From Candidatus Methanomethylicaceae archaeon (GTDB lineage Archaea > Thermoproteota > Methanomethylicia > Methanomethylicales > Methanomethylicaceae): a stretch of DNA of 64,000 nt. Each line of letters opens with the position of its first letter. Positions within the stretch are counted from its first letter, which is position 1. The DNA is taken from NCBI GenBank assembly GCA_026414165.1, contig JAOAJN010000003.1, forward strand, positions 68,172-132,171, read 5' to 3'. This document shows positions 27,504 through 35,681 of this stretch, one piece after another. The notes under the pieces are model-generated. The model searched no databases. It was not told the origin of the DNA and saw nothing but the letters and a program-made list of their open reading frames with translations. The position numbers were made by a program, and so were the translations under genes.

Positions 27504-29174
27504 TTAGTGGCTTGGGATAATCAGATCTCGTTCGCCAGCAGGCATGAACTCCCTGAGAGCGCCTTTTCCGAAGCATAGCCTCGGGTGTGTGAAGTCGAAT
27601 TTCAGGTCCTTGTCTGCGAAGGCCACCTTTATCAATGGGTTTGTTGTCCACGCGTCGCCTCTTCCGCCGTGGGCCGCAGAGATTATACCACAATATGCTG
27701 ATTGGTGTCCAACATTGAGTGCGTAGTTGGGGTAGTTTACGCCCCTCAGGTTGAAGGGCAGACCCTCGTCGCTTCTCCATGAGAAACTGTTCGCCGAGCC
27801 GCATTGGTCTTGGCAGTCGTATCCATAGAAGCCAAGTCGTCCCATCTCTTCCTTGTGGAGCAGTTGGCTCAAGTACCAACCATTGATGCCTGCTGTGGAA
27901 TGACCAGTAACCAGTGACACTGAGACACCAGCACCAGCAGCTACCACGGCAGCCCTCTGGGATCCTCCGAAGTGGGTCTCCATTAAGGCAGGATACCGTT
28001 CATACTGCTCAAGACCGTATAAGGTTACCTCCGTGGCAACATCGTTTATCACATCCCAGCTTGGCTTGACTTTTGCGAAGCCGCCGTACTTCTTCCTAAC
28101 GTACTCAGCACCGTAGTAGCAGAAGTCGTCAAGGATGTTGTCAGTGTAAGTGCAGGTCGCATACTGAGTGAAGCCAACACCACCAGACATGTAGCTTCCG
28201 AACCAGAACTGGTCGTAGAGCACAGCCGCCATGGAAATAGCTTCGAGAGCGACCCAGACGGGGTCCTCTGGCTTGACCCTTGAGGCTTGGCAGATATCGG
28301 CCATGTAGCCTAGCGGAATTCCTCCGGGCTCGTTGGGACCCCTTGCTCGCCTCCAAGGCATCAGAGTACCCATCTCTATAACCTCTGCGTGCTTTGCCGC
28401 AAAGGCGAACTCTCCCACCGCAGCCTCTCCAGCCATGAGTTTGTATGCGTTTATCATAGACATTGAGATCTGCATGGCCGCCCATCTTGACATTGTGCCT
28501 CCGTCGCATGTCATCGCTACGAGTGTTGGCATGCGGCATACCTGGTAAATGCGTTTTCCAATAGCAGCCTTCAGCTGTGCCGCCTGCTCAGCAGGGAACT
28601 CCTTGTTTATGTCGATGAGAAATCTGTCGTCGATCTCGTCTGCAAGCTCGTCGTCACCCGTGAATACCTTAACGTAGCTGTCCGAGACTAGCCCAGGGTG
28701 GGTCTCGACCATGTGCTCTTGAACTACAGCAGCACCTGGCAGTGCGTGGTTGAGTACTTCCAGATAGTGGTTCACGGTTTCAGGGGTGACTTCCTTCCCG
28801 AGTCGCTTCTGCAGGACCGTGTGTGCAGCATCTAGTCCAACAATCACAGTCCGCCTTATGTCATGCCACATCTGCTGCATCGCGGCGTTGTTTATGAAGT
28901 GAAGGTCGTCGCCCTCGCAGTATATGTCTGTTCCCGATAGGCGGTAAGGCATTAAGACTCTTTGTCCTAGCGGGATGCCGCCGAGGTGGAGGTCGGGGTT
29001 GTAAAATGGAACTTTCCTCTCCTTGGCTACCTTTTGAGCAGCCTCTACGAACTCCCTCTTCCTCTTGGACTGCTTCCATCCGTCATAGATGTAGAATTTT
29101 GTTTGTTTCTCTTCAGGAGACTCCTTGAACTTTCTCCTGAGCGCTTCTAAGAACATCTTCTTCTCTTCGCTCAT
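27504..29174 (-). CDS. mcrA: Methyl-coenzyme M reductase alpha subunit
   Basis: 556 aa. Hallmark segments are [51 protein letters not shown] and NYPNYA. GGAGGA lies 5 nt before the ATG. Confidence 0.97.
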
Positions 29175-29185
29175 TACAAATCCTC

Positions 29186-29962
29186 CTAAATCTCTTTCAC
29201 CCTGTTAGGATCAAAACCTGCCTCTGTTCTGAGCATGTGAATTCTCTGGACAAACTGGATAAGTTCCTTGTCATTTCTGAAGGCTTCTCCGTCAACTCTG
29301 AACTGGCTGGTTATTTTTCTCAACTCCTCTTCGGGGGCGGGTTTTCCTACATATATTGGCCTGTCGAGTGGAACTCCAACCTGATCCTTCACATAAACGA
29401 CCTCGCCCTTGTTCTTGTCATATTGGAACCTGCGCAGAGCATCGAACATTAGACCGTTCTCGTCGAGTCTCAGTGCATGACCATGAACTGTGGCACCTCT
29501 GATACCGACCCTCGCCGGATCGAATATTTCGGTCTCCACAAGTTCTTTAGCTACCTTTTCAAGGTCGCGCTCTCGGGCCTCAAGTGGGACGCGGCCTGAT
29601 AGGACGCCAATGTCCACTCCGCGGTATCGCATGTGACCCATCCAAGCCCTCATGTATGGAGTCAGCGGAGCAAAGTACACAGAGTCCGTGAATTGTATGT
29701 AGCGAATCCTGTCACCAGCCTTGGCTCCGGGCGTGGGTTCCACAAGTTCCCTTATGGGGCATGCGGGCTCACCAAGCTCCTCTAAGGGAGGATGGACGCT
29801 CTTGTAAGCCTCCCCTGGAACCCTGTGCCCCATTAATCTAACCAAGTCATCGTCGCTTATTGTCCTTAGCTTTCTAAGTTTGTAATTAGGATCAATGTAT
29901 TTTCGCCGGTTGGCGGATACATTTGACCCTCCAGGGTAATATTGGGGTTTATATTCAACCAT
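29186..29962 (-). CDS. mcrG: Methyl-coenzyme M reductase gamma subunit
   Basis: [15 protein letters not shown]...[16 protein letters not shown]...[18 protein letters not shown]...[12 protein letters not shown]. The ATG starts 1 nt after the mcrB TAA. Confidence 0.95.
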
Positions 29963-29963
29963 T

Positions 29964-31298
29964 TTATACTCCTCCTTTTATTGAGACCGCGGCCTCATTA
30001 ACGTACCGCAAAGATTCCCTAAGCTCAGGCACTTCGCTCAGTACCTCGCCGACTACGCCGCTGATTCTTTCTGGTGTGTAGATGGTAGTTCCAGCATCAA
30101 GTGCCACGGCAGCAGCCACACATGGGATTGTGAAGCCTTTGCTGTGTCGGGTCACTATGTGGTTTCCGTGAAAGACTGCGGGGTTTCCTCCGCCATAGAT
30201 CGAGTGACTGAAGAAGGACATCTCCACACCTGTACCTGTTACTCTGCCAAAGTCCACTCCTGGGAGACCAGTCTCCCTCTCCAGGAGGTCATTGAAGTAT
30301 ATGAAGACTGATGGGGCGTGTTGCATAGATCTCGCAGAACCACAGGTTATCATTGTCCCTGCCAAGAGTCCTGCAGCAGCATAGGCATTCCACTTGTTGA
30401 GATCGCTTGTCGTGTAGAGCGTATATCCAGCAGGGGTCTTCTTTAACGGCTTGATCACACCGTCTGAGAGTGCTCTCTTTACAGTCGATATGACTACGTC
30501 TCCCAGTGTTCCAGTTTTTGCATTCTCTTTCACAAGGTCATAGACTATGTTGTCGGCATTCAAGCCCTGATAGGCTAGACCCAAGAGGTGTAACCTCTCA
30601 AAGCTACCAATGGCGTCGCCCATCTCAAACATAGCAGTCTGTTCCAAGATCGCTGAAAGGGCAGCAGCATTCATAGCATTCTTCTTTGCGATCAGAGCTA
30701 TGTGTGCGCACGGTATGTTTCTGAGGGCGTAGCCCATGCCTTCATTCTGCTGCGGTACTGCCAAGAGTGAGGATACATTTCCACCCAGCATCTCCATAGT
30801 TTGGGGATATCTCCCCCAGACGGCGGCATGTATGAGATCTGCATCCCATATGTTGACGTTAAAGTTCTCGATTATTGTGCAGCAGAGGGCAGCAGCTACA
30901 GCTGTTGCTCCGGTAGTGTACTCAACTCCAGCGTTGAGTCTTTTTGCTGGGACTTTCACAAGGAGGTGCTTTCCGCCCTTTAGAACCTTAACCTCGGTGT
31001 CGTCATCTGGATCTACTTGCAAACACTTCTTCAAAGAGTCTGCCACACTGCCTGCGTTCTTTACAAGATCGAGTTTCAGAGATCTGCCCCTGATGATACA
31101 CCATTTTCCGCCGACTTCACCAGTATCAAGCGCCTTCTCGACACCTTCCAAGTTAACAGCAACGCATTGTTTCACATAGGAGATGATTTTTTGTATGGCA
31201 GTGTTTTTAAGTGGACTCAGAGCCTCAACCGGAACGTTTGTGTCAAAGAGCTTCCCGCGGTCGTCGTACAAGTTCACTTTGTCCGGATATTTTGGCAT
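29964..31298 (-). CDS. mcrB: Methyl-coenzyme M reductase beta subunit
   Basis: [16 protein letters not shown]...[37 protein letters not shown]. The ATG at 31298 is preceded by GAGAGGAG. The ORF-track start at 31364 is 5'-UTR read-through. Confidence 0.95.
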
Positions 31299-31452
31299 AA
31301 AACTCCTCTCTGTAGATTTCTTAGGTGAGAATAGATAACTGGAGGTTAAAAATCTTGCCCTCAATCCTGAAATTAAAATAAATTGTATTAAAGTGATTTT
31401 AAGAGTTTATATTTTTATTTTTTATTAATTATTAATAGAAAACATTTATAGA
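31299..31452 (-). promoter_or_regulatory. mcrBGA promoter and 5'-UTR region
   Basis: A 154-nt, very AT-rich spacer. The minus-strand reading begins TCTATAAATG, followed by ATTAAT-A-ATTAAT (31424-31436) and AAAATAAAAATATAAAC. It ends with a strong GAGGAG ribosome-binding site. Confidence 0.5.
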
Positions 31453-31995
31453 CTAACCAGTAGATGTTATTTTTTCCACGAGGAGGTATACAGAGTCCAA
31501 AAGATTTGATTCTTCAACCTTTATTGTAGCGATTGGGATTCGCACAAACTTCTCTATTATACTGGCGACTATGGAGGCGCAGACCAGACCGTTTACATGC
31601 TCCCGCTCAGCCTTTATAGCGCTTATAATTGCATCCTCTATTGTCAATGCAGGGTATTCTTTTATTATCACGCGCTTACCTTTCGCTAATAGCTGGTGTT
31701 TTGAGAGAGCGTCAAGAGAAGGTCTTGCAGCAATTATCCCAATAATGATGTCTGCAGGTGGAGCTTCAAGAGAGTGGAGGTACTTAAGAATGTCTCTGAG
31801 TGTGGATAAGCGGAGATCTCTACACTCGGAAAGTATCTTATTTATGGTGCTGAGGGGGACGCCAGAACCATCGCTAAGATCCTTTGCAGATATGCCCATA
31901 CGTCGCATTATAGATTTGAGAGTTGATGAAAATGTCTCGTTTGACGTTAGGGCAGCATTTAAAAGTTCATCACGGATTGTTAGCTCTCTTTCCAT
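31453..31995 (-). CDS. XRE-family HTH regulator with an uncharacterised C-terminal alpha/beta domain
   Basis: The HTH is LKSIMRRMGISAKDLSDGSGVPLSTINKILS. It is the last gene of the ABC-transporter operon: ATG 31995 lies 1 nt after the ATPase stop. It sits immediately upstream of the mcr promoter. Confidence 0.65.
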   Translation of the reverse strand: MERELTIRDELLNAALTSNETFSSTLKSIMRRMGISAKDLSDGSGVPLSTINKILSECRDLRLSTLRDILKYLHSLEAPPADIIIGIIAARPSLDALSKHQLLAKGKRVIIKEYPALTIEDAIISAIKAEREHVNGLVCASIVASIIEKFVRIPIATIKVEESNLLDSVYLLVEKITSTG

Positions 31996-31996
31996 T

Positions 31997-32767
31997 TCAG
32001 ATACCCTCCAATTCCTCATGGAAGGCGGTCAAGATGCGCTCACGGTAGGAGATGAAGGGAGGACTCAGCCTAGCCCTTGGATATGGAAGATCTATGTTGA
32101 TTATCTGCTTAACTCTTGAAGGACGCTTGGTAAGAACAAAGACTCTCTGTGCAAGAAAGACCGCCTCCTCTACATTATGAGTTATAAACAGGACGGTCTT
32201 ATTGAGTTTTGACCATATGTTCAGAAGCTCCCTCTGCATGAGTGATCTTGTCTGGGCGTCGAGATCCGCAAAGGGCTCATCCATCAATATGAGATCAGGA
32301 TTTATGGCCAAAGCCCTAGCTATGGCAACCCTCTTCTTCATGCCGCCCGAAATTTGGTGCGGGTAATAGTTTTCAAACCCTTGTAAACCTACGAGCTCGA
32401 TATAGGTTCTGGCGATTTTTTCATGCTCGCTCTCTTTATAGCCTTGAAGCTCTAGTCCAAATTTGACGTTTCCGATAACTGTCCTCCATGGTAGCAAAGA
32501 GTCCTCTTGAAAGATCACACCAAACCTCTGCTTTCGGGGGTCTGGAGGGTCGCCAAAAATAAGAATTCTGCCAGAAGTGGGTGGCTCAAGCCCCGAGACG
32601 AGTCTGAGAAGTGTGGTTTTACCACATCCTGATGGTCCGACTATGCATACAAATTCGTTTTCGTTTACATCAAACGTGAGGCTTTTTATAACCTCTAAGG
32701 AGCTTGAGCCGACCTCGTATTTTTTGGATACCGATTCTAGCAAGATCGCTTTTTTCAATTTGCACAC
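31997..32767 (-). CDS. ABC transporter ATPase, NitT/TauT (sulfonate/nitrate/taurine) family
   Basis: GPSGCGKTT, FQEDSLLPWRTV, ISGGMKKRVAIARAL and LMDEPF. The single-cassette length of ~256 aa is typical of SsuB/TauB. Confidence 0.85.
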   Translation of the reverse strand: MCKLKKAILLESVSKKYEVGSSSLEVIKSLTFDVNENEFVCIVGPSGCGKTTLLRLVSGLEPPTSGRILIFGDPPDPRKQRFGVIFQEDSLLPWRTVIGNVKFGLELQGYKESEHEKIARTYIELVGLQGFENYYPHQISGGMKKRVAIARALAINPDLILMDEPFADLDAQTRSLMQRELLNIWSKLNKTVLFITHNVEEAVFLAQRVFVLTKRPSRVKQIINIDLPYPRARLSPPFISYRERILTAFHEELEGI

Positions 32768-33568
32768 CTACGCCCTTATCTCAACCCTCCACTTAAACAG
32801 CCTCTTCTCTAGAAGTAGAATGAAGTAATTCAGCGTAAGACCTATCAGACCAATAGTTATCATGCCTACTATTACCACATCAATTTGGAGCAGATTTGCA
32901 TATTTTAGTATCAGCCTTCCGAGACCTACGGGCTCACCACCAATCATCTCAGCCGCAACTATACACATCCAACCAACTCCAAGTCCCACCCTAAGCCCGT
33001 TCATAATCTCGGGGAGCGAGCTTGGGAATATGACCCTTGCGATTATCTTTTTGTTGTCCGCGCCGAATGTCTTCGCCATCTGTATCAGCGTTATTGAGGT
33101 TCTTTTAACGCCAGCTATAGTATCCAGCAGCACTGGGAAAAAAACCCCTATCCATATCAAAAAAATATACCTCCAGAGACCTATGAGTAGAACGATCGAA
33201 AGAGGGATCCAAGCTATTGGCGGAATAAATCGAAGTGGCTCGATAATGGGTGTGACGGCGCCTTTTAGTGTGGGTTTTATTCCTAGCAACATTCCAATCG
33301 GAACGCCTGTTGCAGCGCCAACAATAAATCCGAGTAAGACGCGCTCAAGACTCACCAGTGCATGCCAGGTCAAAGTGTAACCATCGATGTCTCCGACGGT
33401 TAACATAGTGATAAAAGCCTTAAGGACCGAGTAGGGATCTGGAACATATGGAGACGGGGAATAGAGAGCGATTAGTTCCCAAAAAATAAAGAACATTATT
33501 ACTGATGATAAAGCAAAGAGTAGAGACCGCAGGCGGCGATATTGTTTTTTTATTGGGATCATTTTCAA
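32768..33568 (-). CDS. ABC transporter permease, NitT/TauT family
   Basis: About six hydrophobic helices, abutting the ATPase gene. It resembles SsuC/TauC in size and layout. Confidence 0.8.
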   Translation of the reverse strand: MKMIPIKKQYRRLRSLLFALSSVIMFFIFWELIALYSPSPYVPDPYSVLKAFITMLTVGDIDGYTLTWHALVSLERVLLGFIVGAATGVPIGMLLGIKPTLKGAVTPIIEPLRFIPPIAWIPLSIVLLIGLWRYIFLIWIGVFFPVLLDTIAGVKRTSITLIQMAKTFGADNKKIIARVIFPSSLPEIMNGLRVGLGVGWMCIVAAEMIGGEPVGLGRLILKYANLLQIDVVIVGMITIGLIGLTLNYFILLLEKRLFKWRVEIRA

Positions 33569-34548
33569 CCAGCAACATATTTGGTATTTATAAATCCGTT
33601 TATGAAACTATCTACTTGATTTATATCTACATTTTTGATTATGCCAAGCCTAATCATGTTGACAAGGAATTCTCTAATGCTGTCAACGTTTACTGATTTT
33701 GAGAAGTACATGTGTGAAAACGCAAGCTCTATCACTTGTGCTGGTAATTTGGTGACGTTCATCGCGATCTCTTTAGCCTGGGCGGGGTTTGTGTTAATAA
33801 AGTCTATGGCGGTCCTATGTATTTGAATCACCTTATCTACTATTTCGGGATGTGCTGCAAGGAACTTGTCCGAGACCACAAGGACGCAGCATTGATGATT
33901 TGGCATTATGTCGTGGGAGGTGAGCAGTATCGAGGCATTGCTTTGATAGACGGCAATCGACGGGTAGGGCTCCCAACCTATAAATCCGTCGATCTCACCC
34001 CTTCCATACTGCAATGGTAGATCAGATACACGCCCCGGATATTTTGTGATCGTTAGATTGTTGTTCTTTGCGTATGTTGAGATAAGAACATCCTGAATTG
34101 TTCCAGTACCAGGTGTCCCTATCTTTTTGTTGTTCAGATCTATTATGCTCCTTATAATGTTGGGGTTTACTACCAAGGCGGATCCTTCTAAATTCCCAGA
34201 TCCTATTACTATGGGCAGATATGTCGCATTAGAGGCTAACCCGCTGGCTCTGGCCGTCAGTGCTGGAGGAGTGCCAACGTACGCAAAGTCGAGCTCCCCG
34301 ACTACAAAATGCTGCATGAGAGTTGGCCCGTTTATGTATTCATAAAGCTCATATTCAATACCGTATTGTGCAAAATAATTTTTCGTAATTGCGATGTGAA
34401 GCGCCAGATGGTGCAGATCTCCTGTAAGATAGCCTATCCGAACCTTTACCTTTGGAGCAGGTGATAGGAGCCCAGCACTATACATCCCTGCTACCGCACC
34501 CAAAGCTACAATAAGGATAATTGATATCACTATAATACTTTTTTTCAT
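33565..34548 (-). CDS. NMT1/SsuA-like substrate-binding protein (membrane-anchored)
   Basis: An N-terminal anchor helix, then IGYLTGDLHHLALHIA...GELDFAYVGTPPA...GFIGWEPY, typical of SsuA/TauA/ThiY-type binding proteins. It overlaps the permease gene by 4 nt. Confidence 0.75.
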   Translation of the reverse strand: MKKSIIVISIILIVALGAVAGMYSAGLLSPAPKVKVRIGYLTGDLHHLALHIAITKNYFAQYGIEYELYEYINGPTLMQHFVVGELDFAYVGTPPALTARASGLASNATYLPIVIGSGNLEGSALVVNPNIIRSIIDLNNKKIGTPGTGTIQDVLISTYAKNNNLTITKYPGRVSDLPLQYGRGEIDGFIGWEPYPSIAVYQSNASILLTSHDIMPNHQCCVLVVSDKFLAAHPEIVDKVIQIHRTAIDFINTNPAQAKEIAMNVTKLPAQVIELAFSHMYFSKSVNVDSIREFLVNMIRLGIIKNVDINQVDSFINGFINTKYVAG

Positions 34549-34625
34549 GTTAATAATTCCCTCAAAACTGTCTTAATGTATCATAAATTTATAATTTTCG
34601 CCAAAAATTGTAGAAGTGAAAGAGA

Positions 34626-35270
34626 TCAAGATTCAAGGATGCAGAAGAGAGCTGCTGCCAGTGTTCCAAGTTCTGCAGCATTTCTATCTTCTGCGAACCC
34701 AATAAATATGAAATCGCCATTCTCAAGGGAGAAGGAGTTTTTAATCATTGATACAAGTTTTGGATAATCTTTTGAGACGTCGTCCACTATCATCGGAAGT
34801 GAAATCTTTGAGTCTTTGACATTAAAAACCAGCATGCCTTCTGCCCCGTTTCTGACTGCAACATCTCTGAGTTTTGTAATAGGGATCGTAAATGCAGACG
34901 AACCCCTAACTTGAATTGCAAAGGATGGAAGCTGAATGCCAAACTCTTCTAAAGTAAACTCTTTTGAAGATAAAATTGTCTGGCGAAGTTCATTTACTAT
35001 ACTCTTGCCCCACTCCGTCAAATTGCAGCCTCCAACGGGGTCTACGTAGACCAGAGCATGTTCTGTAAGCTTCTTAACAAGGGTTCGGGCCGAACCTTCT
35101 CCTAGACCTAGCATTTTTGACATTGATTGGCGACCCATGCTACCTTGCTCCAATAATAGGAGAGCCTTTACAATATGGACAGGCTTAAAAGCGGGAGAAG
35201 GACCCTTTGGGATCTCGCTTCGTGAGAGTTCGGTTAGAAGTGCTTTCAGTTTCGTCAACCCATTCCCCAT
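34626..35270 (-). CDS. Winged-helix DNA-binding protein with a DUF4443-like C-terminal domain (tentative)
   Basis: The wHTH-like segment is GRQSMSKMLGLGEGSARTLVKKLTEHALV. The C-terminal domain is uncharacterised. Confidence 0.45.
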   Translation of the reverse strand: MGNGLTKLKALLTELSRSEIPKGPSPAFKPVHIVKALLLLEQGSMGRQSMSKMLGLGEGSARTLVKKLTEHALVYVDPVGGCNLTEWGKSIVNELRQTILSSKEFTLEEFGIQLPSFAIQVRGSSAFTIPITKLRDVAVRNGAEGMLVFNVKDSKISLPMIVDDVSKDYPKLVSMIKNSFSLENGDFIFIGFAEDRNAAELGTLAAALFCILES

Positions 35271-35360
35271 TCTCTTCTATATCGCTCGGGAGGATATTCT
35301 CTTTTTCGGTCGGCAAAGATTAAGTGTCAGACTGCAGAGTTATTGATGTGAGGGAGTATT

Positions 35361-35681
35361 ATGCCGTACTGCCAAAATTGTGGGAGCCAAGTAGCTCAGG
35401 ATGCCAAATACTGTCCATACTGCGGAACTAAACTTGAGAAAAGATTTACCGAAGAATTCTCAATAGCGGCTAACGAGCTGATAAAGAAAGTAGAAGAGCT
35501 GATCCATGAGGGGAATGTAACAAGGATAATTGTTAAGGATGAGGCAGGCAAGACACTTCTCGAGATACCTGTCACGGTAGGTATCGTGGGAGCCATACTC
35601 GCACCTTGGCTGGCAGCACTAGGAGTTATCGCAGCATTGGCAACACGTTGTAAAATAGTTGTCGAAAGAAAAATTGAATAG
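35361..35681 (+). CDS. Zinc-ribbon protein with a DUF4342-like domain and a C-terminal hydrophobic helix
   Basis: MPYCQNCGSQVAQDAKYCPYCG is the zinc ribbon. It is followed by NVTRIIVKDEAGKTLLEIPVTVGIVGAILAPW. Confidence 0.6.
   Translation: MPYCQNCGSQVAQDAKYCPYCGTKLEKRFTEEFSIAANELIKKVEELIHEGNVTRIIVKDEAGKTLLEIPVTVGIVGAILAPWLAALGVIAALATRCKIVVERKIE

Follow-up and report, generated by a model that had tools for sequence, protein, structure and literature searches.

The question raised by this locus is what an ATP-binding cassette (ABC) importer, encoded together with its own regulator immediately upstream of the methyl-coenzyme M reductase genes mcrBGA, carries into the cell, and which genes that regulator controls. 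The locus lies within a stretch of 64,000 nucleotides (nt) from a Candidatus Methanomethylicaceae archaeon (GenBank assembly GCA_026414165.1, contig JAOAJN010000003.1, positions 68,172 to 132,171), referred to here as the window; the source assembly, a metagenome-assembled genome (MAG) of the Methanomethylicia (Verstraetearchaeota), comprises 1.19 Mb in 42 contigs and is approximately 86% complete. With a probability that we place at about 0.65, the locus encodes an SsuABC-type importer of coenzyme M (CoM, 2-mercaptoethanesulfonate) with its own one-component regulator, in a host that is a CoM auxotroph. Import of CoM is the most economical explanation because the proteins, including the regulator, are homologous to those of the Methanosarcina ssu locus, because ComA, ComD and ComF are missing, because the module adjoins mcr, and because a relative of the transporter is linked to ComF. 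The genes concerned are listed below.

33565..34548, minus strand: ssuA-like substrate-binding protein (SBP), 327 amino acids (aa), with an N-terminal membrane anchor and the NMT1/SsuA fold
32768..33568, minus strand: ssuC-like permease, 266 aa, TTG start, BPD_transp_1
31997..32767, minus strand: ssuB-like ABC ATPase, 256 aa, GTG start, ABC_tran
31453..31995, minus strand: XRE helix-turn-helix (HTH) one-component regulator, 180 aa (188 aa from the alternative start at 32019)
27504..31298, minus strand: mcrB (29964-31298), mcrG (29186-29962) and mcrA (27504-29174), the conserved downstream neighbour, outside the transporter

The open reading frame (ORF) list and the reading of the sequence agree on a four-gene chain on the minus strand in the order SBP, permease, ATPase and XRE regulator, with the junctions that had been described in an earlier note on this DNA. 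The SBP and permease genes overlap by 4 nt and the permease and ATPase genes abut directly. The ATPase stop codon TGA (31999-31997) is separated by 1 nt from the regulator ATG at 31995-31993, while use of the ATG at 32019 would create an overlap of 23 nt. The start at 31995 appears the better of the two because GGAGG (32009-32005) is located 9 nt upstream and because most regulator homologues are 180-184 aa in length. The exact overlaps are less certain because the permease and ATPase have non-ATG starts; an ATG lies two codons into the permease ORF, and its use would convert the 4-nt overlap into a short gap. The regulator terminates with a TAG that ends at 31453 and the mcrB ATG is located at 31298, so that the chain ends 154 nt before mcrB, as the note had also stated.

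The grouping of genes for an SBP of the NMT1/SsuA fold, a permease and an ATPase identifies the transporter as an ABC importer of the NitT/TauT type. All Pfam domain matches of the four genes are above their cut-offs: for the SBP, NMT1_2 (PF13379) at 85.2 bits with a cut-off of 24.7 and NMT1 (PF09084) at 53.9 bits; for the permease, BPD_transp_1 (PF00528) at 61.4 bits; for the ATPase, ABC_tran (PF00005) at 111.8 bits; and for the regulator, HTH_26 at 28.0 bits (cut-off 22) and HTH_3 at 24.8 bits (cut-off 23), which assigns it to the XRE family. The structural model of the SBP (pLDDT 94.9) matches the SsuA, TauA and NrtA folds at E values below 1e-16. Its best PDB folds, 3UN6, SsuA and TauA, rank ahead of NrtA, THI5 and ThiY, and its nearest solved relatives by sequence are the SsuA proteins of Xanthomonas and E. 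coli. Judged by these comparisons, the SBP is closest to the sulfonate binders among known SBPs.

Furthermore, the SBP belongs to a subfamily with a distinctive set of residues. Across 63 sequences Q152, S211, C220 and C221 are invariant and H46 and H218 nearly so, while residue 47 is His here and in most subfamily members, resulting in the signature H46-H47, Q152, S211, H218-x-C220-C221. The adjacent C220 and C221 are the only two cysteines of the protein. Neither of the two bacterial proteins that were aligned, E. coli SsuA and Xanthomonas SsuA, has the H-x-C-C motif, and the subfamily comprises Methanosarcina SsuA together with members from Methanoliparum, Methanothermobacter, Solidesulfovibrio and Archaeoglobales. 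The Methanothermobacter and Solidesulfovibrio homologues have neither such a regulator nor a recognisable CoM gene adjoining them. The permease also possesses a conserved thiol, Cys202 in the motif GWMC-IVAAEM. A search with this motif matched 24 loci, Methanothermobacter and Solidesulfovibrio not among them, and the Cys is kept in 23 of these; NrtB and CmpB have Ala instead. The thiols of the SBP cleft may be suited to the thiol end of CoM. The H-x-C-C signature is compatible with CoM, yet it is not specific proof of it.

A connection to CoM is provided by Methanosarcina. The ssuA and ssuC genes of Methanosarcina acetivorans have been termed a "CoM-specific ABC transporter"; both were up-regulated in a CoM-starved mutant lacking MMP16 and returned to normal with 1 uM CoM (PMC12068725). 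The corresponding locus, which was retrieved by means of the ssuC guide-RNA sequence printed in PMC10750270, encodes ssuA, ssuC, ssuB and a divergent regulator of 173 aa. All four proteins of the present module have a counterpart there. Identity is 35% for the permease against SsuC (E 2e-36), 54% for the ATPase against SsuB (E 1e-96), 35% over the full length for the regulator (E 2e-35), and a modest 30% for the SBP against SsuA (E 2e-34).

Both archaeal routes to CoM run through sulfopyruvate decarboxylase (ComDE) and end with ComF/MMP16 (cf. PMC12068725). A check of the genome for CoM biosynthesis genes, which the earlier note had proposed, favours CoM scavenging, with ComA, ComD and ComF all negative in the source genome or genus. 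ComA (PF02679) has no match in the source genome. None of the 61 class genomes sampled, two of them closed and 1.5 Mb in size, has ComD (TIGR03845) above its cut-off, while the controls M. jannaschii and M. acetivorans both exceed it. ComF/MMP16 (TIGR03287) is above the cut-off in 9 of the 61 class genomes and in none of the five from the source genus. In the source genome the listed matches to the MMP16 model, the best with an E value of 3e-8, cover the ferredoxin insert only, and none among them covers the part of MMP16 shared with L-ASST, a possible back-up enzyme. No known CoM route was therefore found on the basis of ComA, ComD and ComF; the search did not extend to ComB, ComC, ComE and cysteate synthase. 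A different family of the class has mcrA but no ComD; there, an SBP-permease-ATPase set 28-33% identical to that of the window is clustered with ComF/MMP16 (500 bits), at L004 (G019:C7:180838-185025) and L003 (G022:C1:155991-160169). A related transporter beside ComF constitutes an independent link to CoM.

The position next to mcr, the conservation of which the earlier note had left to be established, is retained throughout the family. The closest homologues of the SBP and regulator, at up to 92% identity, are labelled Candidatus Methanomethylicaceae, Methanomethylicia, Methanosuratincola or Verstraetearchaeota. An SBP orthologue is present in 27 family genomes (53-86% identity, E below 1e-100), and in all 23 in which it shares a contig with mcrA the two genes are co-directional, at a distance of 4.30-4.64 kb. 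In the remaining four, either the locus is divided among short contigs or a canonical mcrA call is missing. One family genome (G029) has neither SBP nor mcrA. The order ATPase-regulator-mcrB was observed in 20 of 20 further isolate or metagenome loci of sufficient length, including that of Methanosuratincola verstraetei, and where the flanks are longer the full order is DUF4443, SBP, permease, ATPase, regulator, mcrBGA and DUF483. The arrangement is kept across at least 10 genera, and the orthologue is fixed to mcr in genera with and without ComF alike.

Taken as a CoM import system, the module would operate as follows. The membrane-anchored SBP would bind extracellular CoM: loops of the NMT1/SsuA fold that bind anions would hold its sulfonate, and the subfamily-specific cluster of His and Cys-Cys in the cleft would face its thiol. 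Import itself would then fall to the permease dimer and the ATPase. The XRE-HTH protein may sense the internal CoM status, as CoM or a derivative, via its small alpha/beta domain, and would set how strongly the promoter 5' of ssuA drives the transporter operon. Placement before mcrBGA would reflect a shared function, because MCR consumes methyl-CoM, and not control of mcr by the regulator; some read-through into mcr is possible.

Several observations weigh against this interpretation. The best NCBIfam model for the SBP, TIGR01728 SsuA_fam, scores 132.4 bits, under its cut-off of 163.5, and identity with Methanosarcina SsuA is modest. The H-x-C-C subfamily and, in archaea, the regulator also occur in Solidesulfovibrio or Archaeoglobales, which are not known CoM users; family membership therefore does not fix the ligand, and the assignment of CoM to the Methanomethylicia SBP is inferred. 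The Cys/His-lined cleft resembles that of SaoX, for which another ligand has been proposed. The source genome is only about 86% complete, though genomes of the same genus and closed relatives agree on the missing CoM genes. The source genome also carries a second NMT1-type SBP, 30% identical to that of the window, on another contig (G000:C37:108394-109182), and such a second SBP is found in most genomes of the family. With respect to cultivation, the medium of cultured relatives contains 10 mg/l CoM, a point in favour of CoM import; on the other side, the description of M. petrocarbonis names yeast extract as the sole essential addition and leaves a CoM requirement unstated.

The main rival is that another small sulfonate, such as taurine, isethionate or sulfoacetate, is imported, either as a CoM precursor processed by unrecognised enzymes or as a source of sulfur; we regard this as unlikely. 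The NitT/TauT family carries many sulfonates, the SBP subfamily extends to organisms that are not known CoM users, and taurine models score close to the top NCBIfam models, which are Sao models for both the permease (163 bits, TauC 154 bits) and the ATPase (220.7 bits, taurine ATPase 219.6). The ComF-linked clusters described above (L003, L004) also include an alanine-aminotransferase-like gene (404 bits, sub-threshold), and such a cluster of ComF, transporter and aminotransferase would fit salvage in which imported taurine is converted to sulfoacetaldehyde and then to CoM. Moreover, two genera of the source family keep ComF/MMP16, though ComD is found in no genome of the class. The rival is weakened because no enzyme is known here for the step from sulfoacetaldehyde to CoM, the source genus having neither ComF nor a listed full-length match to its model. 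There is no gene for a desulfonating enzyme in the module, the orthologue remains beside mcr whether or not a genus has ComF, and the characterised homologue responds to CoM itself (PMC12068725).

A second rival, argued solely from the Cys/His motif and distinctly improbable, is that the ligand held by the His/Cys-Cys cluster is a thiophilic metal or an MCR cofactor that contains a metal or a thiol; nickel, F430-related compounds and coenzyme B are examples. It would account for the invariant adjacent C220 and C221, the near-invariant H218 and H46, the His at residue 47 in most members, and the permease Cys, the counterpart of an Ala in NrtB. The describers of SaoX read the CC motif of its cleft as a metal site, a metal-containing ligand having been proposed for it; 3UN6, which heads the fold matches, is a crystal structure with zinc; and the genes adjoin those of a nickel enzyme. 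However, the same H-x-C-C is carried by Methanosarcina SsuA, whose system is tied to CoM by expression (PMC12068725), all three Sao models remain far under their cut-offs, no solved protein among the SBP-fold matches is a dedicated metal-ion binder, and the module has no metallochaperone or F430 gene.

The thiamine pyrimidine precursor (ThiY-like) role that the earlier note had named as its main alternative, taken together with import of nitrate or bicarbonate, shares a fold with THI5, ThiY, NrtA and CmpA and a permease match to NrtB (E 2e-33), but it is rejected on family and structure ranking and is very improbable, since SsuA_fam is the best NCBIfam match and no ThiY, nitrate or bicarbonate SBP model was matched there, SsuA proteins outrank THI5 (E 1.7e-5) by sequence and ThiY by fold (ThiY 3IX1 comes 28th), those families lack the subfamily signature, and the conserved partners are mcr, ComF and the CoM-linked regulator, not thiamine or nitrogen genes.

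With CoM import retained as the preferred explanation, the second part of the question concerns the regulator. In its model (pLDDT 79) five helices form the XRE domain, and the approximately 100 residues after it fold into a beta-alpha-beta domain. The N-terminal 60 residues match C.BclI, C.Esp1396I and HipB by fold, with a root-mean-square deviation of 1.1-3 A. The C-terminal alpha/beta domain, which had been noted as uncharacterised, is borne out by the model and has no convincing solved relative: none was found by sequence, PrpR_N is matched at a sub-threshold 18.7 bits (cut-off 29.1), and the best match by fold, a LacI/PurR lobe, is a weak likeness (TM of about 0.3). Cys139 and 16 other residues are invariant in the alignment of the family. 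Regulators 32-45% identical to that of the window are divergent beside an SBP-permease-ATPase operon, with no mcr nearby, in every locus with sufficient flank, namely in Methanosarcina (L005), Candidatus Methanoliparum (L008, L009), Archaeoglobales (L035, L036), Thermoplasmata (L033, L034) and the further archaeal loci L011 and L012. It is therefore the transporter, and not mcr, that accompanies the regulator across lineages, and the suggestion that it might also act on the mcr promoter loses its footing. In the two Thermoplasmata loci, the SBPs beside the regulator (L033:2204-3367, L034:3753-4868) appear circularly permuted in the alignment, with the H-x-C-C lobe first and the N-terminal lobe (LGYL..DLHQ..GAPPA..NSEGSG) at the C-terminus.

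The sites at which the regulator could act were sought in the two intergenic regions, which are listed here with the gene upstream of the SBP.

34549..34625, minus strand: promoter region of the transporter operon, with TATA-like AAATTATAAAT and a TACAATT box at 34606-34612
31299..31452, minus strand: regulator-mcrB spacer, with the ATTAAT repeat, TACAATT and the likely mcr core promoter
34626..35270, minus strand: DUF4443 / PH0730-like winged-HTH protein, 214 aa (PF14544 70.5 bits, PF22167 36 bits)

In the mcr spacer, the repeat ATTAAT-N-ATTAAT at 31424-31436, put forward earlier as a candidate operator, is real and is the sole copy in the window, compared with 0.01 expected from whole-window shuffles. 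It is present in none of 18 other regulator-mcrB spacers (60-225 nt), and was rejected as an operator for this lack of conservation. What the related spacers share is a promoter-like GCTTTAATATT or AAGCTTTTTAAT element approximately 50 nt before the ATG. AAGATTTTTAACC, with a TATA-like portion at about 31346-31353, roughly 50 nt 5' of the mcrB ATG, resembles GCTTTAATATTCC and AAGCTTTTTAATGCC of those 18 spacers in both sequence and spacing and is on that ground the likely mcr core promoter of the window. In one genus-level group (L014-L019 and L030), a conserved element GTAAAAATAACACTGTTTTAT is located approximately 60 nt upstream of the mcr TATA-like box; it is found neither in the window nor in Methanosuratincola.

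Upstream of ssuA, TACAATT is positioned about 10 nt 5' of the TATA-like AAATTATAAAT. AATTGTA/TACAATT is the most widely shared 7-mer upstream of ssuA, being present in 11 of 18 lineages with divergent loci included, compared with a mean of 6 and a maximum of 9 in 200 shuffles. The box is often palindromic, as TTGTATACAA or ATACAATTGTAT, and lies just 5' of the TATA box. A second TACAATT is located at 31381-31387 in the mcr spacer, one of eight copies in the window. A box common to both promoters was considered and rejected, since TACAATT occurs in only one of 19 mcr spacers, that of the window, against a shuffle mean of 1.3; the mcr copy is probably due to chance. The box close to ssuA thus appears the better operator candidate, and a role at mcr is unsupported. 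In Methanomethylicaceae the TACAATT box could instead belong to the DUF4443 protein. The earlier proposal of CoM scavenging with a ligand-sensing regulator survives in part: import of CoM agrees with the missing ComA, ComD and ComF, the synteny and the Methanosarcina homology, while the ATTAAT operator and control of mcr are not supported.

The DUF4443 gene is located 5' of the SBP gene in every co-directional locus with sufficient flank, all in Methanomethylicaceae, and is missing from the divergent regulator-transporter loci outside that family. It is uncertain whether the gene belongs to the module, as one for a second regulator, or is a conserved neighbour with no relation to it. On the other side of the module, McrA scores 1005 bits against TIGR03256. 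The longest mcrB ORF (29964-31364, minus strand) opens at a TTG at 31364, while the shorter McrB of 444 aa is favoured by homologue alignments and by an AGGAG before the ATG at 31298; public gene calls for M. verstraetei mcrB likewise disagree, at 468 versus 444 aa. In several class genomes a further, diverged McrA-like gene (about 520 bits, under the cut-off) lies on another contig. Rfam families gave no matches in 31000-35500.

The Methanomethylicia are widespread methanogens outside the Euryarchaeota and have only recently been cultured. In the literature searched, which may omit key papers on the class, no paper links them to CoM biosynthesis or uptake; within the same literature, the class-wide lack of ComD, the fusion of importer and mcr, and the dedicated regulator family appear to be undescribed. 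If these organisms indeed have no CoM synthesis and rely on the importer, methane production by Methanomethylicia would depend on CoM released by other organisms, a supply of CoM would be a requirement for cultivation, and the importer would render them sensitive to CoM analogues such as bromoethanesulfonate. Deletion of ssuC in Methanosarcina results in resistance to bromoethanesulfonate. The regulator family is uncharacterised and is a concrete candidate for what underlies the response of Methanosarcina to CoM starvation, which can be tested genetically in that organism. A broader picture, which we offer tentatively and consider possible but against the odds, is that this family of 180-aa XRE/alpha-beta proteins is the CoM sensor of CoM-using archaea, its C-terminal domain and invariant Cys reading free CoM or CoM disulfide and setting uptake via the AATTGTA-type box at the ssuA promoter. 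The Cys-Cys cleft and the permease Cys would then handle CoM by thiol chemistry and not by mere binding, and the Methanomethylicaceae would be obligate CoM scavengers dependent on other methanogens.

Comparison with known systems places the module as follows. The SAO system (SaoX/SaoP/SaoA) supplies the top or second NCBIfam match for all three transporter subunits, and shares a CC motif in the SBP cleft (SaoX) and a permease Cys or Sec in a comparable region. However, the scores are far under the cut-offs (79.7 versus 300, 162.8 versus 295 and 220.7 versus 360 bits), and no other SAO gene is present, the neighbours being mcr, DUF4443 and DUF483. Bacterial SsuABC/TauABC systems (E. coli SsuA 2X26, Xanthomonas SsuA 3E4R/3KSX, TauA 6SSY) have the same three-component architecture and SBP fold and provide the best sequence and fold matches among solved structures. 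They differ in that the SBP of the window falls under the SsuA_fam cut-off and carries the H-x-C-C that the two aligned bacterial SsuA proteins do not have, and in that their function is to scavenge sulfur, in combination with SsuDE or TauD oxygenases and LysR-type control, all of them absent here. The kind of system is already known, namely the Ssu-type CoM transporter of methanogens. In Methanosarcina the regulator is divergent, while here it is co-directional and last in the operon, and the module is fused 5' of mcrBGA. Methanosarcina makes CoM, and the transporter there is therefore non-essential, whereas no biosynthetic route was found here; sequence divergence from the window proteins is large, and the two systems are compared as homologues. 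The features common to both systems are the homology of each of the four proteins, the H-x-C-C and His motifs of the SBP, the GWMC motif of the permease, a regulator gene next to the transporter genes, and a host that uses CoM.

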